Assembly: GCA_023255625.1 (NCBI GenBank)
Contig: JAHFLF010000001.1
Coordinates: 290,965 to 354,964, forward strand
DNA from: Candidatus Harrisonbacteria bacterium
GTDB lineage: Bacteria > Patescibacteriota > Minisyncoccia > UBA6257 > 1-14-0-10-44-23
Length of the DNA: 64,000 nt
Direction: 5' to 3'
Every line of letters begins with the position of its first letter. Positions within the stretch are counted from its first letter, which is position 1. Below the pieces are notes generated by a model that did no database searches, was not told the DNA's origin, and saw only the letters and a list, made by a program, of their open reading frames with translations. The translations under genes were made by a program, and so were the position numbers. Shown in pieces: positions 3,137 through 51,049 of the stretch.

Positions 3137-3598
3137 ATGAACCTAACGAATGAATACATTAGAGGACTTATAGACGGTGAGGGCTGCTTTTCTTTTTGTA
3201 CAAGCAGTTTCGTAGTAAGAAATGAGACTCTCTACCGCGGAAAGGTACCTGCATTCCAAATTTCAATGCATGTTAGAGACAAGGATCTTATTGAAGGAGT
3301 GCGGGATCATCTTGGCCTGAAAAATAAAGTCTATGTTTATAAATCTTCACAAAAAGATGGAATAAAAAGAGGAGATAAGGCAACCCTAATAGTCAGGAAG
3401 GCTTGTGACCTGAGAATGATAATAGTTCCATTTTTCTATGGTAAATTGCGCGGTCACAAGGGAAAGCAATTCAAGGAGTGGCTAGAAAAAATTGGATCAG
3501 ATGAAAGAGTTGGTGAAAAATTCAAAATTATCCATAGACTCTATAAATGCGGATATTGGGAGAAAATCCAGAATATACCGGAAAAATTCAGGAGTTAA
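3137..3598 (+). CDS. LAGLIDADG-family homing endonuclease (single-motif type)
   Basis: N-terminal YIRGLIDGEGCF is a textbook LAGLIDADG motif. 153 aa, basic C-terminus. Confidence 0.7.
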   Translation: MNLTNEYIRGLIDGEGCFSFCTSSFVVRNETLYRGKVPAFQISMHVRDKDLIEGVRDHLGLKNKVYVYKSSQKDGIKRGDKATLIVRKACDLRMIIVPFFYGKLRGHKGKQFKEWLEKIGSDERVGEKFKIIHRLYKCGYWEKIQNIPEKFRS

Positions 3599-3647
3599 AA
3601 ATTGTTTTACACTTTTCGTGAAACAAATTCGTGATTCAGCAAACAGG

Positions 3648-3656
3648 TTATCCACA
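3648..3656 (+). promoter_or_regulatory. perfect DnaA-box 9-mer TTATCCACA inside an AT-rich iteron-like region
   Basis: Exact consensus DnaA box. It is surrounded by repeated GTTTTAC(G/A)C and GTGAAACAA motifs across 3600-3930. Confidence 0.35.
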
Positions 3657-3695
3657 GAATCTTCGTAAAACAAATAATGTTTTACGCTTTTTGAA

Positions 3696-3724
3696 CCGTG
3701 AAATTTGTTTGCCGTAACGGTATG
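3696..3724. repeat. right arm of the 28-bp inverted repeat enclosing the LAGLIDADG ORF
   Basis: Reverse complement of 3107-3134. Confidence 0.8.
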
Positions 3725-4086
3725 ATATGGAATTCCTGTTCAAATCAAAAACGATGTTTGCCAGAATGTTTCACACTCTTTTAGAGTATTTTGCAAATCC
3801 CCGTTCAGAACAATTGTTTCGCATCTTTTAAACATTTTTTGCAAGTGTAAAACATCCTGTAAAACAAAACCTGCCCGCCTTTGGAGGGAATGTTTTACGC
3901 TTGTGTTTTACAAAAAATTAGCGTGAAACAACGAATATCCGGCAAAATAATGCGGCAATCCGGCAATTGCCTTATTTTTTGCCGTATTACAAAATTCACA
4001 AAATTATCTTATACCCATATTGGCTTGCTGATCAACATTGCCGCCGTATATACCATCAGATGAAGCATGCTCGCTTGACTATCATG

Positions 4087-4104
4087 CAGCGTACTAGTAC
4101 GCTG
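4087..4104. promoter_or_regulatory. 18-bp perfect palindrome CAGCGTACTAGTACGCTG upstream of the TrpR-like gene
   Basis: Perfect palindrome with GTACTAGTAC core, about 50 bp upstream of the start at 4158. Confidence 0.5.
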
Positions 4105-4157
4105 GTACATAGAGACGGTGTCTTTGAGTAATCAATATTAGTAACCAATAAAATAAT

Positions 4158-4442
4158 ATGAATAACCAATACAAAGAAGAGTTAGTAGAACTGCTGCGCA
4201 CTGCAGCTAAAGACGCGAAACTGTTTGAGGCGGTGCTACGCGACATACTCACGCCGTCTGAATATAGAGAAATTGCTAATAGGTGGCAGATAGTTAAAAA
4301 ACTCGCGATGGGAGAGGACCAGCGCGCGATTGCCCAGGATCTTAAGGTTGGTATCACGACCGTCACTCGCGGCGTCCATGTGCTAGAAAACTCGGGCGGG
4401 GGATTCAACCAAATGCTTAGTAAACTCGTCGCACGAAAATAG
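4158..4442 (+). CDS. TrpR/YerC-YecD family (Trp-repressor-like) DNA-binding protein
   Basis: 94 aa. LTPSEYREIANRWQIVKKLAMGEDQRAIAQDLKVGITTVTRG matches the YerC/TrpR-like HTH family. Confidence 0.6.
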   Translation: MNNQYKEELVELLRTAAKDAKLFEAVLRDILTPSEYREIANRWQIVKKLAMGEDQRAIAQDLKVGITTVTRGVHVLENSGGGFNQMLSKLVARK

Positions 4443-4476
4443 CGCCGCTACCCTTCGGCTCATATGACCACTTGAC

Positions 4477-4510
4477 TATGTTACAGTGTACTAGTACACT
4501 GTAACATAGC
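4477..4510. promoter_or_regulatory. 34-bp perfect palindrome CTATGTTACAGTGTACTAGTACACTGTAACATAG downstream of the TrpR-like gene
   Basis: Perfect palindrome centred on GTACTAGTAC. Could be an operator, a bidirectional hairpin, or a recombination site. Confidence 0.5.
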
Positions 4511-4728
4511 TGATTTATCTTCGTTATTACTTAATATGAACTGCTTGACCATGGCAACTAAAAACTCTGCAGAAATTCTCCGCACCTGGTGGGCCGCCCG
4601 ACATACTCGAAGGGCGCGCTTTGTGTTTGCATAACGATTTTTTATAAAATCTTTCGAACTTAAAACCCGCTCTTGGAGCGGCGTTTCTGTTTTCTGAACG
4701 AGATCAGGGGGCTGGATGGAGGTGCTTC

Positions 4729-5427
4729 ATGCCGAATATTACGCCTGTCGATACCGAGCGATTGCTTAGACCCATCACTTCGGAACGTGAGCGGCTCGAG
4801 CGATCAATTTCGAAGTCTCTGCCGTTTGAGCTCTGGGTCACTGGGATTCTGATGCTCATGTTACTCGGCGTACACGTTTTCTGGCCCGCAGACAAACTGG
4901 ATGCACCAATCGTCGCCCCTGCTGTCGAGTCGCAACAGACCGTCCCAGATTTGGAGACGACGACCCAGGCCAGTCATGAGGTGTGCCGGCAGATTCTGCC
5001 AGAGACGATGCTCGAGGCGGCGATAGAGCCCCAGGAAGAACGAACCTACCTCGTCACCTTCAAGACCAAGAAGAACAGCAATTGGACCGACTTCGGGGCG
5101 ACCAGAGAGACCAAGGAGGTGGATGAGGCGACATACAACAAGCACAAGATCGGGCAGGAGGTTAGCAGAAAGCCCGTCGCCTTCAGCTTCCGTGACTACT
5201 ATGCCGTGACCGTCGTGGAGAAGCAGATCAAGCGGAAGTTCTTCTGGATCGACCGAATGGAGAAGCGTCTGCAGGTTGGCGAGCGTGAGTTCCAAGCCGT
5301 TCTTGCAGAATTACAGTCTTGTGGCCGGGCGCCTAAGTTGCCTGTCGCTGCAGGCAAGATTCATTCCTATACCGTGGAGAAGCCGCTCGCTGAAACCGAA
5401 GGAAGCAACTCCAGAGGTGACAAATGA
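4729..5427 (+). CDS. hypothetical protein with N-terminal transmembrane segment (232 aa), GC-rich island
   Basis: ATG preceded by GGATGGAGGTG. Hydrophobic stretch near the N-terminus. Confidence 0.55.
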   Translation: MPNITPVDTERLLRPITSERERLERSISKSLPFELWVTGILMLMLLGVHVFWPADKLDAPIVAPAVESQQTVPDLETTTQASHEVCRQILPETMLEAAIEPQEERTYLVTFKTKKNSNWTDFGATRETKEVDEATYNKHKIGQEVSRKPVAFSFRDYYAVTVVEKQIKRKFFWIDRMEKRLQVGEREFQAVLAELQSCGRAPKLPVAAGKIHSYTVEKPLAETEGSNSRGDK

Positions 5428-5660
5428 AGAAGTTCCTGAAGTACTTCCTGCTCGCGCTCGTAGCTTCTGCGGTGGCGTACACCGTTCGGGCTGAAGAGCT
5501 CGACTGGAATTGGCAGTTCAAGGTCGTGATGTTCGATCGCATCAGGCCAGGGTCACTGGACCCAAGCTGGTGTGGCTGGACTCACATGGCCGTCTGGAAT
5601 CTCTTCATCGCTTGGTGGTACTACACCTACGAATGGAAGAGGCCCCATCGGTTGTGGTGA
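5424..5660 (+). CDS. small secreted/membrane protein (78 aa), Trp-rich
   Basis: ATG overlaps the upstream stop (ATGA). Preceded by AGAGGTGA. Signal-like N-terminus. Confidence 0.5.
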   Translation: MKKFLKYFLLALVASAVAYTVRAEELDWNWQFKVVMFDRIRPGSLDPSWCGWTHMAVWNLFIAWWYYTYEWKRPHRLW

Positions 5661-5698
5661 TGGAGTTTTAATCAACGGACCGCAAAGAGGTGCTAAAC

Positions 5699-6844
5699 AT
5701 GGATATCAAGCAGGTAATGAAGAGGCATGCGTACCAGAACATGCCGCTCGGATACGATGCTGCGTACGAGTTGGGCATGTTGGCACTGCGTGGGTGTGCC
5801 GGAGACCCACTCGCACAGATCCAGAGCATCGTTGCGCTCTCTGCACTGCACACGCGTGCGACCTATCACGCGGCGGATGACGCCGCCGCGGAACAGATCG
5901 CCGGTGTCTGCGCTACCGTCTTTGATCACGACATCGCGACCTCTACGCTCGGCTTCATCGAGCCGGTCGGGGATGTGATGGACAACTGCGGGATGGGTGG
6001 GGACCTGGTTGTGACGGCGAATGTCTCGACCTTGGCCGCACTGATCGCCGCTGCTGGCGGAATCCGAATGTGCAAGCACGGATCGCCAGCGAATGCCGAC
6101 GGTGGTCGACACGGCAGCTCTGACTTCATCGATCTACTGGGCATAGAACGCTGCCCAGAGGTGGGAATGGTCGAACGCTGCGTCGATGAACTCGGCTTCG
6201 GCTACAGCGAGGCATTGGATACACGCTACAAGCGAATCCACTGCCAGACACACGAGGTAGCGCAACTGCCGCACATGAATGACATCATCGGCCCGGTCAC
6301 CAACCCGGTCCGTCCGACCAAGCTGAAGAGGCGCGTACTCGGCATCAACCACCTTATCCCGCCACGGGTGGTCGCCAAGGCGTTCAGAATTCTCAACACT
6401 CGCGGTATCACCGTGGTCACGCATGGATTGTTCGTTCGCGGATTCACCGATGACAGAACGAGCGCATCCGGCATGGACGAGGTTTCAATCTGTCAGGCCG
6501 GCACTCTTGTCGCTGAACTGAAGGATGGAGAGATCACGGAATACTGGCTGACCGCTGAAGACTTCGGTCTGAAGTCGGTCGCAAGCGCCGCAATCTCGCC
6601 GGCGTCGGGCATGTCAAAGGGGGAATTCTCAATGCGCATCTTGTGCGGCGAGATACAGGGACCCCCGCTGCAAATGGTTCTTGCCAATGCAGCGCTCTTG
6701 TTCAAACTGAACGACCCTGCGCTCACTTACCCGGAGGCGTATCAACGGGCAGAACAGATTCACCGCGACAAGCTCGACCAGAACATCGCCACAGAAGTGG
6801 CTCGGCTCATCCCGAGTCAGAAGGGAGCAATGTGTCTCAACTGA
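5699..6844 (+). CDS. glycosyl transferase family 3 protein, anthranilate phosphoribosyltransferase (TrpD)-like
   Basis: MDNCGMGGD...KHGSPANADGGRHGSSDFIDLLGI resembles the TrpD GTGGD/KHGNR region. ATG at 5699 preceded by AGAGGTG. Substrate unknown. Confidence 0.5.
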   Translation: MDIKQVMKRHAYQNMPLGYDAAYELGMLALRGCAGDPLAQIQSIVALSALHTRATYHAADDAAAEQIAGVCATVFDHDIATSTLGFIEPVGDVMDNCGMGGDLVVTANVSTLAALIAAAGGIRMCKHGSPANADGGRHGSSDFIDLLGIERCPEVGMVERCVDELGFGYSEALDTRYKRIHCQTHEVAQLPHMNDIIGPVTNPVRPTKLKRRVLGINHLIPPRVVAKAFRILNTRGITVVTHGLFVRGFTDDRTSASGMDEVSICQAGTLVAELKDGEITEYWLTAEDFGLKSVASAAISPASGMSKGEFSMRILCGEIQGPPLQMVLANAALLFKLNDPALTYPEAYQRAEQIHRDKLDQNIATEVARLIPSQKGAMCLN

Positions 6845-7668
6845 CGAAGAAAAATGTGGGCATCATGATCGACTACGACGGGGTCGTCGTGTTGCAAACA
6901 ACGCAGCGGCCCACCTGTGACCCCAAGGCGATGTTCGAGCGACTCGCCCGAGCAGGGGTGATCATCATCCCGAACTCTGACACGCCAGTGGATCGTCTCA
7001 TGAGAAACTTCGAGGAAGCTACCGGCATCAAGCCAGCGCACCTCGTCGCAGAGCGCGGAGCAGTAGTCGTGAGCGAAAAAAAGCGCCACTACTACAAGCC
7101 CCAAGGCGACTTGTTCAAGCAGTACCGCAGTGCAATACAAGAAGCGCTGACCAGGGCCGGCATCGAAGTACTCATCAATGATGCGGCGAACTGGGTGCGC
7201 GATGTCCGTACGCATACACCCAACAGTCGCATGGCAATTCTCGACGGCATGCGCGAACTAAGCTTTTGCGCCTTCTTCCGGAGGACTGACGAATCCGGAG
7301 GGCCGTACATCGACCACGAATTCATGCAGGACTGCCTGCACGTCATCGACACCGTGGAGCCGCCAGTCGAGATCGAGAGGCAGACGGACAAATGTTTCGG
7401 GATCATGATCGGTAGCATTCCCGGAGTGAGCAAGACTACCGGTTTCCGGATTCTGCGTGATCTCTTCCGTGAGCCAATGCAGTGGTACATGATTGGAGAC
7501 GGCGAGGGCGACCTGATCGACGCAGATGAAGTAACGCATTGCGCGGTCGGCAATGCACAAGACGCACTGATCCACCGATGCGCGTTCCGAGCAAAACATT
7601 CGTACACCGACGGATTGCTCGAATGCCTCGACTGGATCAGCGCAAAGGAGAATCTATCAGAGCACTAG
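6832..7668 (+). CDS. HAD-superfamily hydrolase (Cof-like)
   Basis: IMIDYDGVVV (HAD motif I DxDG) and MIGDGEGD near the C-terminus. Likely GTG start at 6832 after AAGGGAG. Overlaps the end of the upstream gene. Confidence 0.55.
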   Translation: MSQLTKKNVGIMIDYDGVVVLQTTQRPTCDPKAMFERLARAGVIIIPNSDTPVDRLMRNFEEATGIKPAHLVAERGAVVVSEKKRHYYKPQGDLFKQYRSAIQEALTRAGIEVLINDAANWVRDVRTHTPNSRMAILDGMRELSFCAFFRRTDESGGPYIDHEFMQDCLHVIDTVEPPVEIERQTDKCFGIMIGSIPGVSKTTGFRILRDLFREPMQWYMIGDGEGDLIDADEVTHCAVGNAQDALIHRCAFRAKHSYTDGLLECLDWISAKENLSEH

Positions 7669-7690
7669 GGGGAGCTCGGCTCCCCCTACC
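7667..7690 (+). terminator. hairpin GGGGGAGCTCGGCTCCCCC at the border between GC-rich and AT-rich sequence
   Basis: Perfect stem immediately after the stop of the HAD gene. Confidence 0.4.
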
Positions 7691-7699
7691 CCCAATACA

Positions 7700-8383
7700 A
7701 TGAAAAAAATTACCGTTCTCTCAACCTATAGCCAAGATCTGCACTTTCAAGCAGATGATACTTTTATTAAAAAACGCCTCGGCGGACCAGCATTTTTCTT
7801 AAAAAAAACACTTGATCAGAAAAATATTCCTCATAAGATAAAACATGGGAAATTATACCGTATCGCGATACGGTATACGCACAATGGAGAGGAAAACGGA
7901 ACGGTGCTACATAAGCCGCCTCGTAATAAGACGCCGCAAATAATAAAAACACCCTATCTTATCATCTCAACTATCCTGGATGAGTGGCCGCTGCAGATCT
8001 CGGGGTACAAAGGAATATCTTTTATAGATCTACAAGGATTTGCAAGAGGGGGAAAGCAAATAAAATTTCCGGCAAACGCAAAACCGTTCTGCGTTAAAGG
8101 AACTCGGCAAGAAGTAAAGTATTTGAACCCTGGCGACCTTCGGACGCAAAAAAAAGAATGCTTGATTGTTACAGATGGAGGGAGAGGAGTTAAATTATTC
8201 TTCAAAGGAAAACGATACTCTTTCCATATCAAAAAACCCGTGGAAACAACTAATACCGTGGGGGCAGGAGATACTTTTTTCGGTTGCTTTGTGGCAACAT
8301 TTATACAGACTAACAATCCTATTAAAAGTTGCGAAAATGCTATACGACAAACTAATACATTCCTAAAATCACATGAAAGATAA
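7700..8383 (+). CDS. PfkB-family (ribokinase-like) sugar kinase, short form
   Basis: C-terminal VGAGDTFFGCFVA matches the PfkB signature 2 (DTxGAGD). Confidence 0.55.
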   Translation: MKKITVLSTYSQDLHFQADDTFIKKRLGGPAFFLKKTLDQKNIPHKIKHGKLYRIAIRYTHNGEENGTVLHKPPRNKTPQIIKTPYLIISTILDEWPLQISGYKGISFIDLQGFARGGKQIKFPANAKPFCVKGTRQEVKYLNPGDLRTQKKECLIVTDGGRGVKLFFKGKRYSFHIKKPVETTNTVGAGDTFFGCFVATFIQTNNPIKSCENAIRQTNTFLKSHER

Positions 8384-17960: not shown

Positions 17961-18689
17961 ATGGACATTGAAACTGGTTTAAAAAATCTCGGCCTAAAAA
18001 AGTCAGAAATTGCGGTGTATCTATACCTTTTGCGCGCCGGCGCCTCTACGCCGCCGATGATTGCAAAGGGGACGGGAATAGCGCGCACCAACTGTTATCG
18101 CGTACTTACGGCGCTACACGAGAAGGAACTCATCCAAACACAGCCGCTACGCAAACGCCGGGCCTATTTTGTGCGCGACCCGGAGTCATTAGTTTCCGGA
18201 CTGGAGCGAAAAACAGAGTTTGCCCGTCAGATTGTGCCGGAGCTGCGGGATTTTTATACAACGCAAAAAAATAAACCGAAAATCCGCTTTTTTAGCGGCT
18301 GGGAGGAGGTCAAAGAGGTGTTTCGCCTAACACTTGAGGCCAAAAAATTGTTTGCGCTTGGATCAACTGAGACGCTAGCAAAGATTGACCGTAAATTTAT
18401 GGAGTGGCACTGGAACGAGATGCAAAAACGAAAAATTATCTTTGACGACATCCTAACGGCCGATGCAAAAGGGAAAACTGCAGAAGAAATCAAGAGCATC
18501 CGTGGCGCGCTCCAGACCGTCAGATTTCTGCCAGAACAATTCGGCGACCAACCCATGGACATCTTTATCTGGGACGACAATATCGCCTTTATGGCGCTTA
18601 GCGAGCCAATCTTCGCCACGCTCATCACCGACGCGCCGCTCGTCAAAGCAATCAAAATCATGCACCGGGCGCTGTGGGAAAAACTTTAG
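17961..18689 (+). CDS. TrmB-family transcriptional regulator (paralog 1 of 5)
   Basis: N-terminal wHTH (EIAVYLYLLRAGASTPPMIAKGTGIARTNCYRVLTAL) and TrmB-like C-domain. Paralogs at 23945, 33303, 49865 and 61190. Confidence 0.6.
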   Translation: MDIETGLKNLGLKKSEIAVYLYLLRAGASTPPMIAKGTGIARTNCYRVLTALHEKELIQTQPLRKRRAYFVRDPESLVSGLERKTEFARQIVPELRDFYTTQKNKPKIRFFSGWEEVKEVFRLTLEAKKLFALGSTETLAKIDRKFMEWHWNEMQKRKIIFDDILTADAKGKTAEEIKSIRGALQTVRFLPEQFGDQPMDIFIWDDNIAFMALSEPIFATLITDAPLVKAIKIMHRALWEKL

Positions 18690-18790: not shown

Positions 18791-18863
18791 GGAGCGGGCG
18801 ACGGGAGTCGAACCCGTGGCTAGACCTTGGAAGGGTCTCGTATTACCGTTATACAACGCCCGC
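18791..18863 (-). tRNA. tRNA-Gly (anticodon TCC), CCA encoded
   Basis: rc reads GCGGGCG...anticodon loop CTTCCAA...T-loop GGTTCGACTCC...CGCCCGC-T-CCA. Confidence 0.8.
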
Positions 18864-19082
18864 GATAGAGCTAGTCTAACGAAAAATCAGCTTTGGGGCA
18901 ACTAAAAAGTCAGCCCCTAGGCCCGGTAGCATTTTTCGCTTTTTAAGCCATTCGCTTGCGATGAGCCCAGCAAAAAAAGTAAAAACTGCTACCGGACGCC
19001 TTGGGGTTGCAATTGCGGCTCACTTTCGCTACTATACCTCTACATAAATAAGGCATAATACTGCCTTATTTTTATTATAGAC

Positions 19083-19685
19083 ATGCTCAAAAATACCTCG
19101 CAAACAACCAAATGGGCTATCGGCAGTGCGGCTCTTGTCGTAGTTATCCTGCTCTATGTCCTCTGGGCAAACCCAAGCACCCCGCCAGCCGACTTTTTAG
19201 AGGCGCGGATTGCTGCTGTAGGTGCAGTGAACAACTTGGCGCAACTTGTCGATAACTCTCTGGCCAACTTAGAAAAAGTTGATACCTTCACCAAAAACGA
19301 AAATGATATCGAGGCACAAAATCTAATCGGTTTTGAATTCCAGCAACGCGCCGAAAAACAGAATGCGGCGCTCCGGCTGGCCCTACAGCTTGATCAGATG
19401 GCAAAAACCGCGCCGTCAATTAGATCATCTCGCGCTCGCACTTATGCAGTACAAAGTATTACGAGCGGCGTGGCCATGGTCTCCAGAATCATCAGCTACA
19501 ATAACAATCTCGACCAACTCTTTACGGCAATTCAGCAAAAAATCCAATACAAAAACCAGCCGAATCCAACCAATATCCGAGCTCTCTCTGCTAATCTTAA
19601 TGCCGACGCAAAAGCGATTAATGGATTGAGTAAGGAGTTTAATGACGCGCTCGCACAGTTTGATAAGGAGTACGGGATCAAGTAA
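19083..19685 (+). CDS. hypothetical protein with N-terminal TM anchor (200 aa)
   Basis: ORF with hydrophobic N-terminus. Confidence 0.5.
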   Translation: MLKNTSQTTKWAIGSAALVVVILLYVLWANPSTPPADFLEARIAAVGAVNNLAQLVDNSLANLEKVDTFTKNENDIEAQNLIGFEFQQRAEKQNAALRLALQLDQMAKTAPSIRSSRARTYAVQSITSGVAMVSRIISYNNNLDQLFTAIQQKIQYKNQPNPTNIRALSANLNADAKAINGLSKEFNDALAQFDKEYGIK

Positions 19686-21846: not shown

Positions 21847-22182
21847 ATGAAACAAATTACCTGGGCGGATTTTGAGAAGGTGGAGCTGCGGGTCGGGACA
21901 ATTATGACGGTTGAGGATTTCCCTGAGGCAAAAATTCCTGCCTATAAAATCGCTGTTGATTTTGGTGAATTTGGCATAAAGAAATCCAGTGCCCGAATTA
22001 CCGTCCTTTATACGAAAGGGGAATTGGTGGGGAAGAAGGTGATCGGCGTGATTAATTTTCCCATCAAAAAGATTGGTCCGTTTGAGTCCGAGGTATTAAT
22101 CTGCGGATTTTACCGCGAAGACGGCTCGGTTGTGCTCGCCGTGCCAGACAAGGAGATTGGCAATGGAGCTCGAGTCTGTTGA
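21847..22182 (+). CDS. csaA: tRNA-binding protein CsaA (EMAP/Trbp111-like domain)
   Basis: 111 aa. The EKVELRVGTI...IPAYKIAVDFGE pattern matches the MetRS C-terminal-like tRNA-binding domain. Confidence 0.6.
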   Translation: MKQITWADFEKVELRVGTIMTVEDFPEAKIPAYKIAVDFGEFGIKKSSARITVLYTKGELVGKKVIGVINFPIKKIGPFESEVLICGFYREDGSVVLAVPDKEIGNGARVC

Positions 22183-22195
22183 GCAGCCTATTTCG

Positions 22196-22410
22196 AGCCG
22201 CGTTGCCAGGTAGTTTCGCTCGTATGGCTATCTTTTGAGGAAAGGACAATATGCTTAAGCATAGGCCTTTACTCGAAAGTAGTTCAGACGACGAAACTAA
22301 CGGCAACCACTTCGGGATCTGACATATTTTTGCCATTTCATTGTCGAATCGTCCTCGAAGTAGCTGAAGCTACTCCTTGCGGCGATTCTTCGCGACCTGA
22401 CAAAAATATG
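22196..22410 (+). ncRNA. candidate structured noncoding element, copy A (the second copy is at 50629-50835)
   Basis: Conserved blocks GAGGAAARGACAATATGC...GCATAGGC and CATTGTCG..TCGTCCTCGAAGTA-hairpin-TACTCCTTGCGGCGA. The internal hairpin is GTAGC/GCTAC here and GTACG/CGTAC in copy B. Confidence 0.4.
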
Positions 22411-22473
22411 TCTTGATCGCGGCCGGAAAAGGTTACTCAACAGACTCTGGCTGGGGTAGATCTAGACCCCATC

Positions 22474-23944: not shown

Positions 23945-24730
23945 ATGATAATGAGTGAGTGGCAAATACCACCACTCAATAGATATATGTACCAAGAAAT
24001 TCTTGAAGAATTAGGTCTATCGCAAAATGAAGCGAAGATCTACGAAGGCCTGATTGAAATCGGCCAGGCTTCGGTACCGGAAATATCCCTGAAAATAGGA
24101 GTTCATAAGCGTAATGTGTACGACATTATCCCCAAACTTTTAAAACGCGGCCTGATATATCAGATTGCGGATAGCAAGGAAAATACCTATGCTCCGGTCG
24201 CGCCGAATAAACTCTCTGACCTAGTTTGGGAAAAAGAAACAAAACTCAATAGCATTCTTCCAGGGCTCAATAGACAATTTAAAAAAGCCGCAACAGAAGA
24301 AGCGGTGTACATCTATAAAGGTGTTGAGGGATTTAAAAATTATCTTCGCGACATCTTAGCCACAGGGGAAGACGTCTTTTTTATAGGAGCTAAAGGAGGA
24401 TGGTTTGACGCTGACTTGCAAATTTTCATTAAAAAATTCTTAAAGCAAGCTCGCGAAAAAAAAATTAAATATCACCATATTTTTGATGCTGAAGTGAAAA
24501 CGCTGGCTCCCGACCTATTAAAAGCATTGGGGCAGCCATATCGTTTTTTACCGCCGGAATATTCCACAACCGGCGCTATCGATATCTTCGGAGACCATAT
24601 TGTAACCTTCTCTGGGCTAACGTTAAAAAATATTACGGAAGATGCAACTCTGGTCGTGATACAGAATAAAGAATTGGCGGATTGCTACCGAACCTGGTTC
24701 CGGTTTATTTGGGACCATTGCAGAAAATAA
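23945..24730 (+). CDS. TrmB-family transcriptional regulator (paralog 2)
   Basis: wHTH (EAKIYEGLIEIGQASVPEISLKIGVHKRNVYDIIPKL) and TrmB C-domain. Confidence 0.6.
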   Translation: MIMSEWQIPPLNRYMYQEILEELGLSQNEAKIYEGLIEIGQASVPEISLKIGVHKRNVYDIIPKLLKRGLIYQIADSKENTYAPVAPNKLSDLVWEKETKLNSILPGLNRQFKKAATEEAVYIYKGVEGFKNYLRDILATGEDVFFIGAKGGWFDADLQIFIKKFLKQAREKKIKYHHIFDAEVKTLAPDLLKALGQPYRFLPPEYSTTGAIDIFGDHIVTFSGLTLKNITEDATLVVIQNKELADCYRTWFRFIWDHCRK

Positions 24731-26932: not shown

Positions 26933-27275
26933 GACAATAAATGATTGGAATAAGTGAGAAGCGCAGATTTTGATGCAGTTCTAGGCGCGGGAGGGCGGTT
27001 TGTGAGCCGTACTTTTATATAAGTACGGTGAGCAAACCGACGGGACCCGCAACAACGAACTGCTCAAAATATGCATTTCTCACACACAATAACTCTGTAG
27101 TTGCCCCAAATTACGATTCCGGTTCTTGCGATTCCTCCGAAGGAGGATCCGCCTATGGCGGAAAAGTGTCGTGACTTAGAGCTCCACGACCAACACTCTT
27201 TTTCTATCAATCCAGTATATAAATATACTGAAGTGTCGCTTTTTCCTAATCTCCATTTACAGAGAAAGAAAAAAG

Positions 27276-29180
<1,905 letters not shown>

Positions 29181-29630
29181 TAATAAGTAATTTGAAATTC
29201 ATCTAGCCGAAGCCAGATGAATAACAAACACTCTTGTTTTGGGACAACTACACAATTATTGTTGCATACTTTATATCTGCTTGAAGGATATAAAGATTTT
29301 GATTTCCTAATCATTCATTTATCTTTATAGTTTTTAGTATCTTTCGATACAAACATTTTCAAAGAACGAAAGGTATACTCAATTCACTTTTTGAAGTGAA
29401 AATAATACACCCGTCTCGGCGACCTATCGTATGATCTGCAATACGACGACGAGACGGATGCGCTGGTCTGATATATGTTTTTCCGCCAGAGGCGGATCCG
29501 CCTTCGGCGGACAATTTGTACGAATTTCGCGGGATGTTTCGCTGGTTCGTTTGTACTGCCTTAAGCCAGTACTAATGTGGCTTCTAGTATAGTCGACCGA
29601 ATAATAAAGTCAAGACCTTATTAACGAAGC

Positions 29631-31021: not shown

Positions 31022-33331
31022 GTGTCATTTGAAAGACCATCGGAAAAGCCGCAGAGCGCCGAAAGAAGCGAAGGTGCAATTGAAAGGACGCGGCTTTTAG
31101 CGCAGCTGCAAGAGTTAAAAGCTCAACTACTAGCAAACGGAGGTCCTGCCCTAGTGGCCAAAGCCGCCGCTTTCATGGCTGGAGAAGTGACTGCGGCAAA
31201 ATTCTGCCGACGAAGCGAATTACTGCCTCAAGAAGAAGAGCTCCGTAGCACAGCAATTAATGCGCTCGTGCGAGAAGACATTATTAGCGGAGATCAAAAC
31301 CCTGATACCGGCGAGTTCGTGTTCGTCATTGACCCAACAAAAATCAATGGTATCAGCCGCGATAAGTTGCTGAAATACGTTGGTGGGATCGGATATGATG
31401 GCTCCGGCAATCAACTGAAAAAATCCGAAATAATTGCACGCATATTCCGCGACATCCAATCAATCACTCCGGGGCAGCAGGAAGAAGGAGACCTCAATCC
31501 CAAACCATTCCTATATATTCCAAAAAACGCAAAGGACGCGCTTGACCCGGCCAAAATCAAAAAAGCAGAATTTCAAACGACGCTCTGGGACATTGCCGGA
31601 AATAAAGAAGATGGTAATGAGGAATACCCTGTTGCCGATGGTCCGGGGGCCAATGCGCTTGAGACTCGTCTCGCGACGATTATCTTCCATCCGTCATACG
31701 GTGATGGATATCGCGATAAAAGCGGCGTTCTTCTGGTTCGTGATCCGGCCACGCGTGAGTACAAAAAATTCTCTACCGGCACCTTGAGTGACTACAATAT
31801 CAGCGGAACTCGACTTAGTGTTCGCGGCGGCAAGGTTGTACGCAGCAGTCGCCAAGGCCTTGCAGAGATGGCTCCCAGTCTCATCCGGAACGGCGCTCTG
31901 CGTAAAGAAGATTTAATGGCTATTAGAGGTACAAAAACCGGCGTCTATGACAGACGCCCCTCAAAACGAGGTATTAAAAAGTTAGTCATGTTTAACGGGG
32001 TGCGACACTATGTCGGCCCGCATGCCGAGGGTGCGGCGGCCGTACTATTAAGCCCGACAACCGCCGGCATTATAGAAAAAGATGCCTCCGGCAAAGAAAT
32101 GCTGACGCGAGTCTTCAATGCCTTTGATTCAAGCCAATTTGAATTGAAACAAAAGGAAAAGTTCCATGATTCAGGAGTTGATGAAACAAAACCCCGCCCG
32201 TTTGACCTTGCAGAATTTAGCGGCCCTAAAAAAGATGGCGAGTCAGAAGAGCTGTATGCAAATCGCCGCGCAGTCGTAGACTATGTTGAATTCATGAAAA
32301 TAAAAGATGATCTTGCGAAAATAGGTATTCCGGTTGATTCCGGCAATATTGAAACCGAAACCAACCTTGCCCGCGCTGTGCGTATCCTGTCGCAGACAAA
32401 TCGCTATGAAATATTTCTTGCCTTTGCAAAGAAAACGGGCGAATCCGGTATAGCTGCCATCATAACCGCCGGAGATGACGCTCCGTATGTTGAAGCAATC
32501 CTGAAAATTGGCGAGAAATTATCGGCCGATAAGGCACGCGAATTTTTTGAAGAAACCGACCAAGAGAAAATCTTAGAATCTCTTCATGAAAACTCCGGCG
32601 ACAAAACAATCGTAGCACTTCGAGAAAACATTAGGCGTACAAACAGAGAGCTATTCATCCGTTGTGCGGCGAGCGAAACAGCGATCAAAAACCCGCGCGA
32701 AACTAAAAAGATACTCGACCGCGCGAAAGCGGAGATTCGGCTGTTTGAAAATATGCTCCGAATCATTGAAGAAACTGAACAGCTACCGTCAGAATATCTC
32801 CGCGGAACTGAAATGGCGATTACTGAAACCGGCGAACTCTCCGACCTGGATCTTGCGAACATGCTTAAGCAATTTGAGGAGACTCGGAAAAATGACCTGG
32901 ATGAAAAGGGGAAGCCGATTTACGATGCTGAACATCTTGAGGGCCTCGTACAAGATTTCAAACAAAAACTAGAAAATCCCAAAGCGCGATTTTATACTGT
33001 TCGCCAAGGTGGCGCCATCATTGCCTTTGTTCGCTTTGAAGACCTACCGAACGATCATGTCTACGCCGGATCATTCACGACAAGCAAAGATTTGCGCGGC
33101 GAAAAGCTCGGCTCCGCGCTCATGCGAACTGCGTTTGCACAAGAAAACGCCGACAGAACCCTAGAGGCAATTGTTTTTTCCGGAAATCCACGGCTGATGG
33201 AATACCATACTCAAAAGCTCGGCCACGAAATCCATTATGACCAGCCACTCAAAATCGGCGGTGCGTTGTATTACCGGATGACTCGCGAGCCGCGCAAGCA
33301 AGCTACGGTTTCGCTTGGGGCGGCCGCATAG
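31022..33331 (+). CDS. large hypothetical protein (769 aa) with a C-terminal GNAT-like acetyltransferase fold
   Basis: The C-terminal IIAFVRFEDL...RGEKLGSALMRTAF resembles GNAT motif A. About 650 N-terminal residues are unrecognised. Start uncertain (GTG at 31022). Confidence 0.5.
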   Translation: MSFERPSEKPQSAERSEGAIERTRLLAQLQELKAQLLANGGPALVAKAAAFMAGEVTAAKFCRRSELLPQEEELRSTAINALVREDIISGDQNPDTGEFVFVIDPTKINGISRDKLLKYVGGIGYDGSGNQLKKSEIIARIFRDIQSITPGQQEEGDLNPKPFLYIPKNAKDALDPAKIKKAEFQTTLWDIAGNKEDGNEEYPVADGPGANALETRLATIIFHPSYGDGYRDKSGVLLVRDPATREYKKFSTGTLSDYNISGTRLSVRGGKVVRSSRQGLAEMAPSLIRNGALRKEDLMAIRGTKTGVYDRRPSKRGIKKLVMFNGVRHYVGPHAEGAAAVLLSPTTAGIIEKDASGKEMLTRVFNAFDSSQFELKQKEKFHDSGVDETKPRPFDLAEFSGPKKDGESEELYANRRAVVDYVEFMKIKDDLAKIGIPVDSGNIETETNLARAVRILSQTNRYEIFLAFAKKTGESGIAAIITAGDDAPYVEAILKIGEKLSADKAREFFEETDQEKILESLHENSGDKTIVALRENIRRTNRELFIRCAASETAIKNPRETKKILDRAKAEIRLFENMLRIIEETEQLPSEYLRGTEMAITETGELSDLDLANMLKQFEETRKNDLDEKGKPIYDAEHLEGLVQDFKQKLENPKARFYTVRQGGAIIAFVRFEDLPNDHVYAGSFTTSKDLRGEKLGSALMRTAFAQENADRTLEAIVFSGNPRLMEYHTQKLGHEIHYDQPLKIGGALYYRMTREPRKQATVSLGAAA

Positions 33332-34100
33332 ACAAATCAGCAGCCACAAACGGTTGCGCCTTTTCCCATTGCGCCTCAAACAGTGTTCGGTGCATCTGGC
33401 TAATGTATGGATCATCAATAATCACGCCGATGCGGCCGCGCTCATTAAAGCTCAAAAAACTCACTTTATTTTCATAAATTTGTACGATACTGCTAAACGG
33501 AACTTGCGGCGGCGGAATGAGGCGGATAGAGACAATCTGTTTGCTTAATTTTTCTTGGAGCGAACGAATATATTTTGTGTCCGGGCCGATAATCCGTTTG
33601 TGGATGCCGCGTTTTACGCGCTCATTAATATACCGCGCATTTTCTGCCGGTAGATACTTGTCCATAACCTCGTGATCAAGATAGGTTAAGACCTCCCCAC
33701 CTGAAACAAGCGTATCATCAGCCAAAATCCTGATTGCGCTATCGCCCTCGTAATACTGCACACCCGGCTTACCGGAAATCAAATTAAAATCTGATGTTAA
33801 GTTGGCGATAATGCCGCCGAGCGCCTCTTGCGCGACTTTGGCCGATTGCTCTTTCTGCTCCGCAAGCTCTTTCAGCCGAAGCGGATGCGTCGGCTCAAAG
33901 CGCAATACTTTTGCCTTTGTATTTTTTGCGACTAACCCGAGCGCAACGAGCTCATCGAGCACCTTGTAAGTGAGCCCGCGCTTGAGTCCTGATTTTTCGC
34001 TGATTTCACCAGCGGCAAGCGCGCCGTGCTTAAGCAACACCTCGTAAATTTTGGCCTGATCAGCGCTCAATCCGGCTTTAGATAAAGTTTGTTCGTACAT
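33303..34100 (-). CDS. TrmB-family transcriptional regulator (paralog 3)
   Basis: wHTH (QAKIYEVLLKHGALAAGEISEKSGLKRGLTYKVLDEL) and TrmB C-domain. Confidence 0.6.
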   Translation of the reverse strand: MYEQTLSKAGLSADQAKIYEVLLKHGALAAGEISEKSGLKRGLTYKVLDELVALGLVAKNTKAKVLRFEPTHPLRLKELAEQKEQSAKVAQEALGGIIANLTSDFNLISGKPGVQYYEGDSAIRILADDTLVSGGEVLTYLDHEVMDKYLPAENARYINERVKRGIHKRIIGPDTKYIRSLQEKLSKQIVSIRLIPPPQVPFSSIVQIYENKVSFLSFNERGRIGVIIDDPYISQMHRTLFEAQWEKAQPFVAADLSMRPPQAKP

Positions 34101-42532: not shown

Positions 42533-45028
42533 CTACCCGCATCGACTAAATCCACAGGATCCACAGGACATACACCCCTCCTTCAGAGTCAAATTTCCGC
42601 CGCAGTCTGGACAGCCCGGCATCATACCGAAATTGGCAATCGTTTGTTTCTTCGCCGCTCCTTCGCCAGAACTGGCGACTCTCTGTCCTTCCCCGGCAGA
42701 AACTGGCGCACTGATTAATTCATTAATCGTTCCCTCCGAAACCGTCTTCTGTCCTCCGGTAACATGCTCTTCTAGAATCTGCGCAATCGCATCAGGGAGG
42801 GAAAGAATTGTTCCCCGATTTGTCATGACCGGCATCGGCCCGCGGATACCCTTCATCTGCTTAATTATCTCCTCGACTTTAATGTGGCTGCGTAGAGCAA
42901 TGGAAATAAGCCGGCAAAGCGCTTCGGATTGTTCCTGGAAAAATCCGCCGCTCTTGCCCAGAGTCGCGAAGACCTCAATCGGTGCACCATACTCGTCATC
43001 ATTCACCGTAACGAAGAGAATGCCGTAACCGGTCTTCACTTTATAAGTCTTGCCGGAGACAACATCTGGCCGCACTCGCGGGGTCAACTTGCCGGCGTCA
43101 ATCGCCAAGTTCAGCGGCTTTTCAATCTGCTGCACTACTTTTTCTTTTGTGCCAAAACCCTCGGTCGTTGATTTGATATTTTCACCGGCTCCGATATTCA
43201 ATACCTGCACCTCGCGACTACCGTCGCGATAAAAAGTCATCCCTTTGCAACCTTGTTTCCAAGCCAGCACATAACCGGCCGCCACCTCCTCACGCGTCGC
43301 GCTGTTTGGAAAGTTAATCGTCTTACTAATTGAATTATCAACATGCTTCTGAAATGACGCCTGCATCTGGATATGATCTTCGGCTGCAATATCCATGGAA
43401 ACCACAAATGTATCGCGCAAATCTTTAGGCAGGGTCGAGAGGTTCTGGATGCTGCCGGTCTTGAGGAGCTCGTCCATAATACCGCTCTTATTAATATCAA
43501 TCTTGCGATCTTTGAGCGCCTGTTCGAAAACCGGATTTAAATACTTATATTGCAAACCGTCTTTATCCTGCTTGGTAAAGTACAAGGCAAAGTTTGGTTC
43601 TATGCCGCTAGAGCAGTCGGTAAACATCGAGATCGAACCGGTCGGCGCAACGGTCGTGAGCGCGGCATTACGCATCTTAATCCGTTTTTTGCCAAACACA
43701 CTGTCTTTCCAAAGTCCGAATGCACCTTTTTCTTTGGCGAGCACCTGGCTCATTGCATGGGCCTCGTCGTTAATAAAGCCCATTACTTTTTCGCCCAGAT
43801 CGCGGCCCTGCTTAGAGTTATATTGCACGCCGAGCTTATAGAGCATGTCGGCAAAACCCATAATTCCCAACCCGATTCTACGCGTAGACTGGGCCCGATC
43901 AGTCACTTTCTGAACCGGATGCGCATACAAATCAATCACATTATCGTGCAAACGAACTGCAGTACGGGTTACCTTGCGTAGCCGTTGCCAATCAATCTTT
44001 TCTCCCTTCACAAAAGCAGAAAGATTTATTGAACCAAGATTACAGACATCATAGTGATGCAGGAACTGCTCACCGCACGGGTTAGTCGAATCAATCGCGC
44101 CGAGTTGAGGCAGAGGATTAGTCTTGTTGGCAGCATCCAGGTTCACTACACCGGGCTCGCCATTAAACCAGGCGCCCTCAACGAGTTCGTCAAAAAGTTG
44201 CTTGGCCGTCATGTCTAATTCCTCGAAACCATTTACCGAACCGTTGCCGGAGCGTAACACCCGGTGCGGCTTCATCCGCTTGCCATTCCAACGAGCGAGC
44301 CAGGGCTCATTTGGTTTTTCCGTAACGGCTTTCATAAACTCATCGGTGATGCCGACGGAAATATTAAAGTTGCGGATACTGCCTTCAACAGTTTTGCAGT
44401 GAATGAAATCCAGAATATCCGGATGATCCACCGGCATGATGGCCATGTTCGCACCGTGGCGTCCCTGCTGCTTAATAATTCCAAATGCAGTGTTGTAAAT
44501 TTTTAGAAATTCAACCGGGCCGGAGGACATGCCGTTGGTGCGCTTCGTCGGCGTACCGGCCGGACGCAGATGACCGAAAGAAAAGCCCAGCCCACTGCCG
44601 GCCTGCTGCAAAAGTGCGGCTTCTTTTAAAGTCTGAAAAATATCTTCGAGCGTATCTAAGACGGGGAGCACAATGCAGTTGGCAATAATCGGCGTACCGG
44701 CGCCGACATTGGTCAAAGTGCGGCCGGCCGGTGTGTGCTCCTTGTTGGCCATGATCTCAAAAAAATCTTGCTCGATTTTTTTGACCTGCGAATCGGTTTT
44801 TCCGTATTTTTCTTTTTCAATCTGCGCCAACCCGCCGGCAACACGGTGAAAAAGTTCCGCCGGAGTCTCCTGCGTGCCGTCTTCGCGTTTGGCGAGATAG
44901 CGTTTCTTCATCATTTTCAGAGCGTTCTCGGAAAATGACTGATTTATTTTTTTATCAAATTCTTTTTGTGAATTCACGGCTGATTTTTTTGCTACGAATA
45001 CTCTTTTCGCGACAGCTTTCTTCTTCAT
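42533..45028 (-). CDS. nrdJ: class II (adenosylcobalamin-dependent) ribonucleotide reductase NrdJ with C-terminal zinc ribbon
   Basis: Long RNR core with C-terminal CPDCGG...CMSCGSCGFSRCG. ATG at 45028. Confidence 0.8.
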   Translation of the reverse strand: MKKKAVAKRVFVAKKSAVNSQKEFDKKINQSFSENALKMMKKRYLAKREDGTQETPAELFHRVAGGLAQIEKEKYGKTDSQVKKIEQDFFEIMANKEHTPAGRTLTNVGAGTPIIANCIVLPVLDTLEDIFQTLKEAALLQQAGSGLGFSFGHLRPAGTPTKRTNGMSSGPVEFLKIYNTAFGIIKQQGRHGANMAIMPVDHPDILDFIHCKTVEGSIRNFNISVGITDEFMKAVTEKPNEPWLARWNGKRMKPHRVLRSGNGSVNGFEELDMTAKQLFDELVEGAWFNGEPGVVNLDAANKTNPLPQLGAIDSTNPCGEQFLHHYDVCNLGSINLSAFVKGEKIDWQRLRKVTRTAVRLHDNVIDLYAHPVQKVTDRAQSTRRIGLGIMGFADMLYKLGVQYNSKQGRDLGEKVMGFINDEAHAMSQVLAKEKGAFGLWKDSVFGKKRIKMRNAALTTVAPTGSISMFTDCSSGIEPNFALYFTKQDKDGLQYKYLNPVFEQALKDRKIDINKSGIMDELLKTGSIQNLSTLPKDLRDTFVVSMDIAAEDHIQMQASFQKHVDNSISKTINFPNSATREEVAAGYVLAWKQGCKGMTFYRDGSREVQVLNIGAGENIKSTTEGFGTKEKVVQQIEKPLNLAIDAGKLTPRVRPDVVSGKTYKVKTGYGILFVTVNDDEYGAPIEVFATLGKSGGFFQEQSEALCRLISIALRSHIKVEEIIKQMKGIRGPMPVMTNRGTILSLPDAIAQILEEHVTGGQKTVSEGTINELISAPVSAGEGQRVASSGEGAAKKQTIANFGMMPGCPDCGGNLTLKEGCMSCGSCGFSRCG

Positions 45029-45317
45029 AATGGGAAAGGGATAATTAAAATAATAAAATTTTCGATGAAGAAAAAATATGCACTGGAAATCATCAGGAAT
45101 TTTTTCGTTCCTCAATTCTACTCCCCGTTCTCAAGACCTGGCAAGAGTGGATAACTCAAAAATGTTCAAGCTAAAAAAGATTTTTAACAAGTGTCAACGA
45201 CGCCAACCTAAAAATCGCTTCACAAACCAAAAAATCAGCTCCGCGGGGCTGATTTTTTGGGCCTTTTTCTTAGTTTCGACCAATTAACCAACTAACCAAC
45301 TAACTGATGAACTAATT

Positions 45318-45675
45318 CTGGTGCCGCGGGTCAGAATCGAACTGACAACCACTTCCTCTTCCAAGGATATTCTCTGCATTACTGCAAAGTTTGGACTATA
45401 TCATCTCCCCAGAGGGGAGTCGGGCGCTATCTGCGAGGTTATTGTTGGGACTCACTCGCTAGTCTCTACACCTGCCTCCGCTAAAGCTACTGCAGGCAAG
45501 CCTTCTTCAACGATTTGGCTTGCTTGCAATCCGTAGCCTCCCGGCGAAGGATTGGCTCGGGATTTTCCTCTCACAAGGAGTTCCCCCGAATTCACCCAAT
45601 TATTCAATCCATATTACTATGGAAGGCCCCAAAGAGTTATCAATAGGGAAATGCTCTACCATTGAGCTACCGCGG
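45318..45675 (-). tRNA. tRNA-Phe (anticodon GAA) interrupted by a 283-nt group I intron between U33 and G34 (exons 45644-45675 and 45318-45360)
   Basis: Exon 1 GCCGCGGTAGCTCAATGGTAGAGCATTTCCCT. Exon 2 GAAGAGGAAGTGGTTGTCAGTTCGATTCTGACCCGCGGCACCA. Intron carries group I R-like (TAGAGACTAG) and S-like (GATATAGTCC) elements, a GGGG internal guide, and ends in G. Confidence 0.7.
45361..45643 (-). mobile_element. group I intron within the tRNA-Phe anticodon loop, with no homing-endonuclease ORF
   Basis: See the tRNA-Phe entry. The 5' exon ends in U and the 3' exon follows a G. Confidence 0.6.
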
Positions 45676-46377
45676 CAGCGGCGCGAACTGCTTCAAACCC
45701 TCAATCCACCCCATAATTTTATAGAACAGTTGAGTATTGTTGATTCTAATTTGAATGACCCCAAAAGGCAAGCGATTAAAGGGTCTTTTACCTTTGCTAG
45801 ATAAACTTACGAAAATATGCACTTTGCCAAAACGACTCTTGGGAATCTTAGTAATCTTTGACCAATAACTAATTGCTTCATCTTCTTGAATATGTTTAAA
45901 GATTCTTAAATCTGCAGTGATCTTTTCTTCTGGTACATTGCAAATCTCGCGGATAAATCTTAGAAACATCTGCACCAACAACGGATCAGAATTTGTAAGA
46001 CTTATTGAGTGTGCTGTTATTTCACGACCCTTAACTTTTCTCACTCTTTTATAACCTTCCGCCCAGTAAAGCGCGATTCCGACAATAAACAAATTTTCTC
46101 TTGATACCTCACGAATCTCAGATTGAGCCAATTCCAAAATATCATCTCTCCGCTTAATGGCTAGGGCTGTCTGCTCCTTATTTCTTTTTATAAAACCAGC
46201 AAGGGATTTTTCGCGGCTCCGGACTGCAATTTTTTTCCGGGCCTCATCAGAAAGGGGAACTTCTTTCAACCATAAAGAAAGGGTTGATTTAGAAATCCCT
46301 AGCAACAGTTTTTGAATCTGACCATAACTCAGACCTTCTAACCTCAACTGAATCGCACGATTTTTATCTTTCCTCAT
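45667..46377 (-). CDS. hypothetical HTH-domain protein (236 aa) immediately upstream of, and slightly overlapping, tRNA-Phe
   Basis: N-terminal GLSYGQIQKLLGISKSTLSLWLKE HTH. Basic. Function unknown. Confidence 0.45.
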   Translation of the reverse strand: MRKDKNRAIQLRLEGLSYGQIQKLLLGISKSTLSLWLKEVPLSDEARKKIAVRSREKSLAGFIKRNKEQTALAIKRRDDILELAQSEIREVSRENLFIVGIALYWAEGYKRVRKVKGREITAHSISLTNSDPLLVQMFLRFIREICNVPEEKITADLRIFKHIQEDEAISYWSKITKIPKSRFGKVHIFVSLSSKGKRPFNRLPFGVIQIRINNTQLFYKIMGWIEGLKQFAPLPR

Positions 46378-50617: not shown

Positions 50618-50628
50618 AACTTTGCCCC

Positions 50629-50835
50629 GCGTTGCGAAGCCCGTTTTGCCGTATGCTAGGCGCGAGGAAAAGACAATATGCCCAAAGCATAGGCTTTTCT
50701 GAACAACAACGCAGACGGGCAAACGGGCTTCAACCCGAAGGGCTCTGGCCAATTTCCGTCATACCATTGTCGGCTCGTCCTCGAAGTACGTAAACGTACT
50801 CCTTGCGGCGAGCCTTCGCGGTCTGACAGAAATTG
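50629..50835 (+). ncRNA. candidate structured noncoding element, copy B
   Basis: See 22196-22410. The hairpin GAAGTACG-TAAA-CGTACTCC covaries with copy A. Confidence 0.4.
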
Positions 50836-50902
50836 ACCTAGAGCTCGGGAAAAAGATTTTAGCGAGATAGACGCTGAACGGATTGATGTAAGAAATAAAA
50901 GA

Positions 50903-50940
50903 GTTGGGCGAGATGCTTCGGCTTCAGCATGACAGAGGGG
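50903..50940. repeat. GGGCGAGAT-hairpin repeat, copy 3, with compensatory stem (ATGCT/AGCAT in place of ATCCC/GGGAT)
   Basis: GTTGGGCGAGATGCTTCGGCTTCAGCATGACAGAGGGG. Confidence 0.7.
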
Positions 50941-51049
50941 TCCCGATCTGCTACAATATCTACATAAAATGTATCGCATACGGCGATGCTTTTTTATTAG
51001 CTTTCTCGCCTCTCACTACTCCCTACAACCTACGCCCTAATCCTTATCT

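Follow-up and report, generated by a model that had tools for sequence, protein, structure and literature searches.

Prokaryotic MITEs are shorter than 500 bp, carry terminal inverted repeats and direct repeats which fade with age, and give rise to transcripts with stable stem-loops (PMC10969869). The element reported here is similar to them, in particular to Correia/NEMIS of Neisseria: it is small (<500 bp), non-coding and multi-copy, has inverted-repeat ends, inserts between genes or at gene ends and would be co-transcribed as a very stable stem-loop structure. One of its copies (L017) is located just upstream of uvrB, as is a well-known Correia copy (PMC10969869). In contrast to Correia/NEMIS, it has no TA or other clean target duplication and no related IS is known. 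Further properties argue against a usual MITE. The element is a branched Y with invariant internal loops and not a simple hairpin. Unlike TIRs which are bound by a transposase, its ends are conserved mainly as pairing and less as sequence, and the long terminal helix (25-34 bp) exceeds the usual 4-30 bp at the upper end. It is not AT-rich, and its copies, at 47-76% identity, are not near-identical; this divergence is far above that of typical MITE bursts.

With Rickettsia palindromic elements (RPEs) the element shares the palindromic repeats, the reduced, host-dependent genome, the existence of several diverged families, insertion into protein-coding genes without destroying them, and the absence of an obvious transposase/TIR/TSD signature (in part, PMC10969869). 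It differs from RPEs in its size of ~276 bp, in a stop within 3-4 codons, in a location which is mostly between genes and in an unrelated host phylum. RPEs, reportedly described by Ogata and colleagues in 2000, are ~100-150 bp long; as a rule they are inserted in frame and become translated along with the protein. REPINs come with an associated RAYT gene, and none was seen here. REPINs/BIMEs, ERIC and the pneumococcal BOX affect mRNA decay; as in these repeats, the structure of our element is kept by compensatory change and gene 3' ends are occupied (in part, PMC10969869). Like BOX it is modular, because its P2 arm is replaceable. In contrast, REPINs/BIMEs, ERIC and BOX are shorter, simple hairpins and have no sequence similarity to it. 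With the structured RNAs in Rfam 15 (group I introns, ribozymes, 6S RNA, Y RNA and the large ornate RNAs) it has in common a multi-helix junction, conserved loops and covariation, but not the strand asymmetry, the fixed genomic context or the single-copy distribution.

In the literature searched, neither MITE-type nor palindromic repeats were linked to Saccharibacteria or other CPR bacteria. The element constitutes a family of insertion elements of Saccharibacteria which is strongly structured and had not been described before. The genomes of CPR bacteria and Saccharibacteria are tiny and gene-dense. Here, what would be a selfish element enters gene ends, and an elaborate Y fold is kept across lineages with only half of the sequence in common.

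Extent, parts and fold of the two copies

The window, i.e. the whole 64-kb stretch of DNA which was analysed, had been proposed to contain two copies of a noncoding element of roughly 210 nt, each beginning right after a stop codon. The collinear blocks on which this proposal was built are common to both regions, and GAGGAAARGACAATATGC occurs exactly twice in the window versus 0.07 times expected by chance. The length, however, was underestimated. A closing helix, P1, of 25-34 bp runs outward and enlarges both units past the first ~210-nt spans. A conserved GATCGCGG just 3' of the end first described pairs with a CCGCG on the 5' side, and P1 extends outward from there. Accordingly, copy A comprises 22171-22447 (277 nt) and copy B ~50602-50878 (~276 nt). 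The stop codons of csaA (22180-22182) and of the TrmB gene (50615-50617) do not precede the copies but sit within the outer helix.

The element is non-coding, Y-shaped, ~276 nt long and almost entirely self-complementary. Its consensus consists of P1 as the closing helix, P2 as the 5' arm, a CCC-NNN-GGG mini-hairpin and P3 as the 3' arm. P2 has ~105 nt and is closed by GUUGC/GCAAC. P3 has ~103 nt, and its core UGUCG..CGUCCUCGAAGU-hairpin-ACUCCUUGCGGCG..CUUCG is almost invariant. The parts of both copies are given below (the '+' strand is the orientation of the model).

22171-22447, +: copy A, full; inverted repeat GAGTCTGTTGAG...CTCAACAGACTC at the 3' end of csaA
22172-22201, +: copy A, 5' strand of P1; holds the last three csaA codons R-V-C and the TGA stop at 22180-22182
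22202-22307, +: copy A, P2; GUUGC...GCAAC with the distal block GAGGAAAGGACAATATGC-loop-GCATAGGC; helices 2-6
22308-22315, +: copy A, junction and mini-hairpin; CC-ACUUCG-GG, in other copies CCC-NNN-GGG
22316-22418, +: copy A, P3; near-invariant core CGTCCTCGAAGT (22350-22361) and ACTCCTTGCGGCG (22372-22384) around the covarying apical hairpin
22419-22447, +: copy A, 3' strand of P1; pairs with the 5' strand
22448-22459, +: remnant of the ancestral csaA end downstream of copy A; TGG CTG GGG TAG, i.e. x-L-G-stop
50602-50878, +: copy B, full; inverted repeat 50602-50874, within the 3' end of a TrmB-family ORF
50602-50630, +: copy B, 5' strand of P1; codons L-S-R and the TAA stop (50615-50617) of the truncated TrmB
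50631-50734, +: copy B, P2; the 5' arm
50735-50741, +: copy B, junction and mini-hairpin CCCGAAGGG; overlaps the ends of P2 and P3
50742-50844, +: copy B, P3; core at 50776-50787 and 50798-50810
50845-50874, +: copy B, 3' strand of P1; pairs with the 5' strand
50879-50932, +: displaced C-terminal coding tail of TrmB; CGG ATT GAT GTA AGA AAT AAA ... TGA, i.e. RIDVRNKRVGRDASASA followed by a stop

With a few flanking bases included, the P1 duplex of copy A with 22419-22447 has 32 bp and -52.0 kcal/mol (z = -7.5 versus shuffles), that of copy B with 50845-50874 has 27 bp and -43.3 kcal/mol (z = -7.6). The folds of the originally described spans were already exceptional compared with shuffled sequences (z = -8.1 for A, -6.3 for B); for the full elements z was -11.3 and -9.7, respectively. 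Both copies align over their full length, with conserved blocks and variable segments in between. Between A and B 14 pairs are changed on both sides. These include the swap of the apical hairpin, GTAGC-TGAA-GCTAC versus GTACG-TAAA-CGTAC, which had been noted as a double compensatory change and is a genuine one.

Neither frame nor extent of the ORFs which overlap the element is conserved, and the substitutions are those of compensatory pairing and not codon-like. The earlier statement that the overlapping ORFs share no protein similarity was not quite correct, as one stretch of 27 aa is common to both (E = 0.002). This similarity exists because the nucleotides are conserved and is not evidence of coding.

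A covarying family in Saccharibacteria

Eight further copies were identified, all from Saccharibacteria: they are in five species-representative MAGs and on one JGI metagenome contig. All ten copies together come from at least six genomes, at unrelated loci. A pattern scan of one genome per species yielded as true relatives L006 (a tandem pair), L017, L039, L040, L041 and L042, all of them in Saccharibacteria MAGs. A covariance model was then built on eight copies; L039 and L061 were left out of the building and still fit. The model recovered L039, a short variant with a P2 of ~30 nt, and found the divergent copy L061 on the JGI contig with 145 bits. Within the window it scored 246 bits for copy A and 245 bits for copy B.

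Pairing is strongly conserved. In the ten-copy alignment 93.6% of the stem cells pair, versus ~41% when the partners are slid by 1-3 columns. Compensatory changes on both sides are present in 46 of 71 pairs, and none of 500 shuffles reached any of five measures. P1 was found as a helix of 25-34 bp in all ten copies (z = -6.5 to -9.6 versus shuffles). P3 (helix 7) has 40 pairs, 24 of them with compensatory change, and 94% of its cells are paired. The helices vary freely in sequence with pairing kept; the junction and the asymmetric internal loops of P3 are constant. Two U.G pairs in P3 stand out: the one formed by columns 187-218 is invariant, the other, columns 177-228, is present in nine of ten copies. 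In the mini-hairpin CCC and GGG are invariant and the loop is variable. P2 differs by subfamily; it has ~30 nt in L039 and other distal sequences in L040, L041 and L061. As an end sequence only GAGYCY...RGRCTC is common to the copies, and the P1 pairing covaries. All copy boundaries (n = 10) are uncertain by 1-3 nt.

Identity between copies is only 47-76%. They cluster by subfamily and not by genome, i.e. copy A with the two L006 copies (L006a, L006b), copy B with L017 and L042, and L039 with L040; one MAG holds two subfamilies. The GC content of the copies is 47-52% versus 49% in the window. The tandem pair (L006 4177-4775, -) consists of two full copies which are 37 nt apart and ~71% identical. 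It is located upstream of a gene for a Com-type zinc-ribbon + PAS protein.

Searches of the window and of all ten copies against Rfam 15, at gathering and at permissive thresholds, gave no family that matched the element. Plasmid, phage and viral-contig collections contained nothing similar to the element. Two pattern scans of the JGI metagenome collection gave no match; because L061, on a JGI contig, should have matched the second pattern, the scanned collection evidently was without these contigs. A search of a protein collection for miscalled copies with the spurious ORF crossing copy B returned nothing.

Only two copies exist in the window. A weak third match of the model at 18897-19129 (-) was rejected: it scored 15.8 bits, only the junction-like UUGCAACCCCAAGG matches, the z of the fold is only -3, and it overlaps the antisense start of an ORF. 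This segment is intergenic, between a tRNA gene (18793-18863, -) and an ORF starting at 19083 (+), and has a long hairpin CCGGTAGCAG...TGCTACCGG followed by the terminator-like GGGGCTGACTTTTTAGTTGCCCC. It may represent a small RNA without kinship to the element, or else a relative which has degenerated very far. Matches of the pattern scan in L012 and L029 and ~40 matches in high-GC genomes were dismissed as chance occurrences in coding DNA.

Gene ends at the insertion sites and gene context

The TrmB-family protein upstream of copy B ends with ...AWAEAKRLSR. All ten aligned TrmB homologs continue past ...AKR, nine of them as ...AWAEAKRIDVR(N/K)...; without the interruption the homologs read ...AWAEAKRIDVRNK..., and their tails KRIDVRNK.... 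Directly 3' of copy B a frame-2 translation gives RIDVRNK..., i.e. the tail is still readable, yet cut off from its ORF. Deletion of 276 nt at copy B, the inserted length, rejoins the TrmB frame exactly and gives ...AEAKRIDVRNKRVGRDASASA and a stop; the junction is ambiguous by 3 nt (50603-50878 or 50606-50881). The 5' strand of P1 in copy B is homologous to P1 of L017, GAGTCTATTTCGCTAACAATTT. Therefore, the strand coding for L-S-R-stop belongs to the element and not to the TrmB gene.

The situation is similar at copy A. In seven of seven aligned relatives csaA ends with ...KLG, versus ...RVC in the window. DNA homology to the closest csaA relative (88% identity) breaks after 22170; in this relative csaA is separated from the next gene by only 6 nt, and the element is absent. 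Deletion of 22171-22447 (277 nt) results in ...NGAWLG versus the ancestral ...NGAKLG. The element was absent from 14 loci (~150 kb) which carry related csaA or TrmB genes. It is thus missing from related genomes at the orthologous sites, an outcome which had been listed beforehand as speaking against the proposal, and present at other sites in other Saccharibacteria. Judged by these comparisons, both window copies are insertions which truncated the upstream ORFs: A replaced the last csaA codons and B split the 3' end of TrmB. Because the element brings a nearby stop codon, only the last few residues are lost from TrmB and csaA. The intact state of the displaced TrmB tail makes insertion B look young. 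In the relatives free of the element, L056-L058, the region upstream of csaA (~3198-7984) contains HEPN_AbiU2, DUF4238 and a large serine recombinase; this block probably is an integrated defence island.

A target-site duplication which was unambiguous or consistent was not found at the ten copies. Imperfect GCT-containing repeats flank copies A and B. The left flank ends with CTA in four of ten copies, and GCT is present just 3' of the element in six of ten (boundaries +/-1-3 nt).

The ten loci have no neighbouring gene in common. Neighbours are genes for an SSF transporter, a DedA-like protein, uvrB, rpsB, an ECF sigma factor, a PAS protein, tRNA-Pro and an integrase/T4SS pilin. Six of the eight copies outside the window are between genes; the flanks of L039 and L040 are unreadable. 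The two genes which flank copy A are convergent; at L061 both neighbours are on the strand opposite to the element. In five of six interpretable loci the element is co-oriented with the genes, with L061 as the opposite case; this hints at strand specificity in a sample too small for significance. The lack of a common neighbour argues against a riboswitch, and a riboswitch or cis-regulatory leader was discarded as the downstream genes are unrelated and orientation and position inconsistent. Orthology of the L017 copy with copy A by way of a NUDIX neighbour was considered and dropped, the two NUDIX proteins being unrelated. Neither window copy has a promoter or terminator of its own, and so both are expected to be transcribed with the flanking mRNAs.

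Two sites in the vicinity of copies deserve mention. The 'DedA gene' which had been placed after copy B is indeed a downstream gene, but its label derives from a VTT_dom match of 28 bits, below the Pfam cutoff of 33.9. Between the displaced TrmB tail and this DedA-like gene, 50929-50995 (+) contains a promoter-like ATGACA-17-TACAAT with an upstream TG, then a terminator-like hairpin and a T6 run (50971-50995), and may be a leader or attenuator of that gene. At L039 (1546-3294) the short-P2 variant adjoins a tyrosine integrase gene, tRNA-Leu and a T4SS pilin gene, an arrangement which resembles the border of an integrated conjugative element.

RNA or DNA, and a proposed mobilising machinery

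Which strand and which nucleic acid the fold belongs to was examined with several measures. The minimum free energy was similar on both strands for every copy. Consensus folding with alifold gave similar values, -74.2 (+ strand) and -75.4 (- strand), and over the union of pairs 56 G.U cells compare with 40 A.C cells. With DNA parameters the full-length fold of copy A had a z of -10.7 (RNA, -11.3). The + strand is favoured by the near-invariant U.G pairs (one invariant, one in nine of ten copies) and by a few RNA-typical tetraloops, C(UUCG)G in copy A and G(CUUG)C in L006a. On the - strand the conserved pyrimidine loops turn into purine loops, and CCCGAAGGG turns into C(UUCG)G in half of the copies. 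Hence, the loop argument fits either strand. A fold which is no better on one strand than on the other, and no worse under DNA parameters, does not demonstrate an RNA function; the element may still have an RNA-level role. Of the original proposal of a candidate structured RNA, the non-coding nature and a conserved, strongly covarying fold outside of known Rfam families have been borne out. The reading as an RNA gene or a cis-regulator has not.

The explanation which we prefer, and consider somewhat more probable than not, is a non-autonomous, MITE/RPE-like insertion-element family which is specific to a sublineage of Saccharibacteria and moved by a fold-recognising enzyme. The insertions at A and B, the dispersed multi-copy occurrence, the tandem pair and the strand symmetry point toward a mobile element; invariant asymmetric loops and near-invariant U.G pairs, which are usual in functional RNAs, point against it. 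'Mobile palindromic repeat' describes the element better than 'RNA gene'. The enzyme would act in trans. No parent IS, transposase, RT or HUH nuclease was found in the annotated flanks or among those ~45 ORFs of the window for which Pfam data exist, a negative which covers about 64 kb. It may recognise the folded single-stranded form, either DNA or RNA, via the P3 loops and the junction. The missing target duplication, the ends conserved as pairing, the branched architecture with invariant loops, a GC content like that of the genome and a deep divergence in spite of an insertion B which looks young together imply several old source lineages held to one fold; the mobilising machinery would accordingly read the fold itself. 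A fold read by such an enzyme would account for the fact that old, diverged lineages all kept it. After insertion the element would be co-transcribed with neighbouring genes, copy A from both convergent genes. The stable structure then probably is a 3'-end barrier or a substrate of RNase III, as reported for Correia and ERIC. This effect at the 3' end would be a by-product and not the reason for the existence of the element.

A sub-case of this explanation, in itself quite improbable, is an end or origin of an ssDNA mobile system which is cut by an HUH enzyme, such as IS200/IS605-type PATEs, REPIN/RAYT-like doublets or a rolling-circle origin. The missing target-site duplication would agree with it, as would a fold that is equally exceptional with DNA parameters, the conservation of structure and not of sequence, and conserved helix mismatches. 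The CTA (4/10) and GCT (6/10) flanks hint at a short target motif, but these counts stem from ten copies with boundaries uncertain by 1-3 nt. Against it, the ends of IS200/IS605 are not complementary to each other, and no gene for a Y1/HUH transposase or a RAYT was seen in the window or in the annotated flanks. A long shot is that CPR bacteria have, in this element, a novel class of mobile structured RNAs: the conserved junction and P3 loops would together make up a core which is catalytic or recruits proteins, and P1 would set the boundaries of excision and insertion. The core could belong to a self-excising or self-inserting ribozyme, or to an RNA which guides or scaffolds a recombinase with its gene elsewhere. 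A mobile structured RNA would account for the structure-preserving divergence, the absent target duplications and the intact downstream gene tails. When the P3 core was compared by eye with the k-turn, sarcin-ricin, hammerhead and group II domain V motifs, none fitted.

Two further readings were considered. The copies may belong to a family of cellular structured ncRNAs, protein-binding or scaffold RNAs or stabilising or processing elements of 3'-UTRs, which spread by duplication with each copy selected for its RNA fold. We take this to be rather unlikely. Pairing of 93.6% at 47-76% identity is easier to understand with purifying selection on each copy, and the invariant asymmetric internal loops, the near-invariant U.G pairs and the C(UUCG)G and G(CUUG)C loops of copy A and L006a are in line with it. 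So are co-transcription of the window copies with the upstream genes, with no terminator or promoter in between, and the co-orientation with neighbours in five of six loci. On the other hand, fold energy and the G.U versus A.C counts lack strand asymmetry, the loop features work on either strand, and a consistent gene context is missing. P2 is dispensable, as exemplified by L039, and the distribution is patchy even among close relatives. Moreover, insertion B, which looks young, implies that copies still arise by insertion into genes, which is selfish behaviour. Alternatively, the element may be intron-like, i.e. a Y-shaped RNA which leaves the mRNA by itself or is cut out by host endonuclease and ligase at the base of P1, restoring full-length TrmB and csaA. 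Removal of 276 nt (B) or 277-280 nt (A) does restore in-frame ancestral C-termini with intact downstream tails, and in both copies the junctions can be set such that a U precedes the upstream one and a G the downstream one. The genome also has a group I intron, apparently in a ribonucleotide reductase gene, and a LAGLIDADG ORF. Yet any insertion restores the ORF upon deletion, so this evidence is unspecific, and the restored csaA is inexact (K -> W, or K deleted). The fold has no group I core. The window copies did not match any Rfam group I, group II or ribozyme family at E <= 10, nor did RF00028 match the eight copies outside the window at E <= 0.5; RF00028 does detect the genuine intron at 45372-45644 in the same window. 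Furthermore, the element's own in-frame stop codons occur within 3-4 codons, and six of the eight other copies are between genes with nothing to splice (the flanks of L039 and L040 are unreadable). An intron is therefore very improbable indeed.

As a mobile structured repeat the element marks recent changes of the genome in a lineage without cultures, and it is a cause of false gene calls and truncated proteins in the annotation of MAGs. It also lends itself well to the question of which molecule, and which enzyme, read a conserved nucleic-acid fold in transposition. Should the fold prove to operate as RNA, CPR bacteria would have yielded a new class of large RNAs.

The window contains other features of interest. 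The group I intron (Rfam; 45372-45644, -) is located between an ORF of 236 aa without a Pfam match (45667-46377, -) and the ORF of the large subunit of ribonucleotide reductase (42533-45115, -). From this arrangement the RNR gene (42533-46377, -) appears to be split by a self-splicing intron. An ORF at 3137-3598 (+) codes for a LAGLIDADG_1 homing-endonuclease domain (E = 2e-8). The 16S rRNA gene (27274-29184, -) has 1911 nt with insertions of ~39, 140 and 115 nt compared with the bacterial model. Such insertions are typical of CPR bacteria, and the element model did not match them. Finally, at least four paralogs of TrmB-family regulators are present within the 64 kb (17961-18689, 23945-24730, 33303-34100 (-) and 49865-50617), and this in a very small genome.
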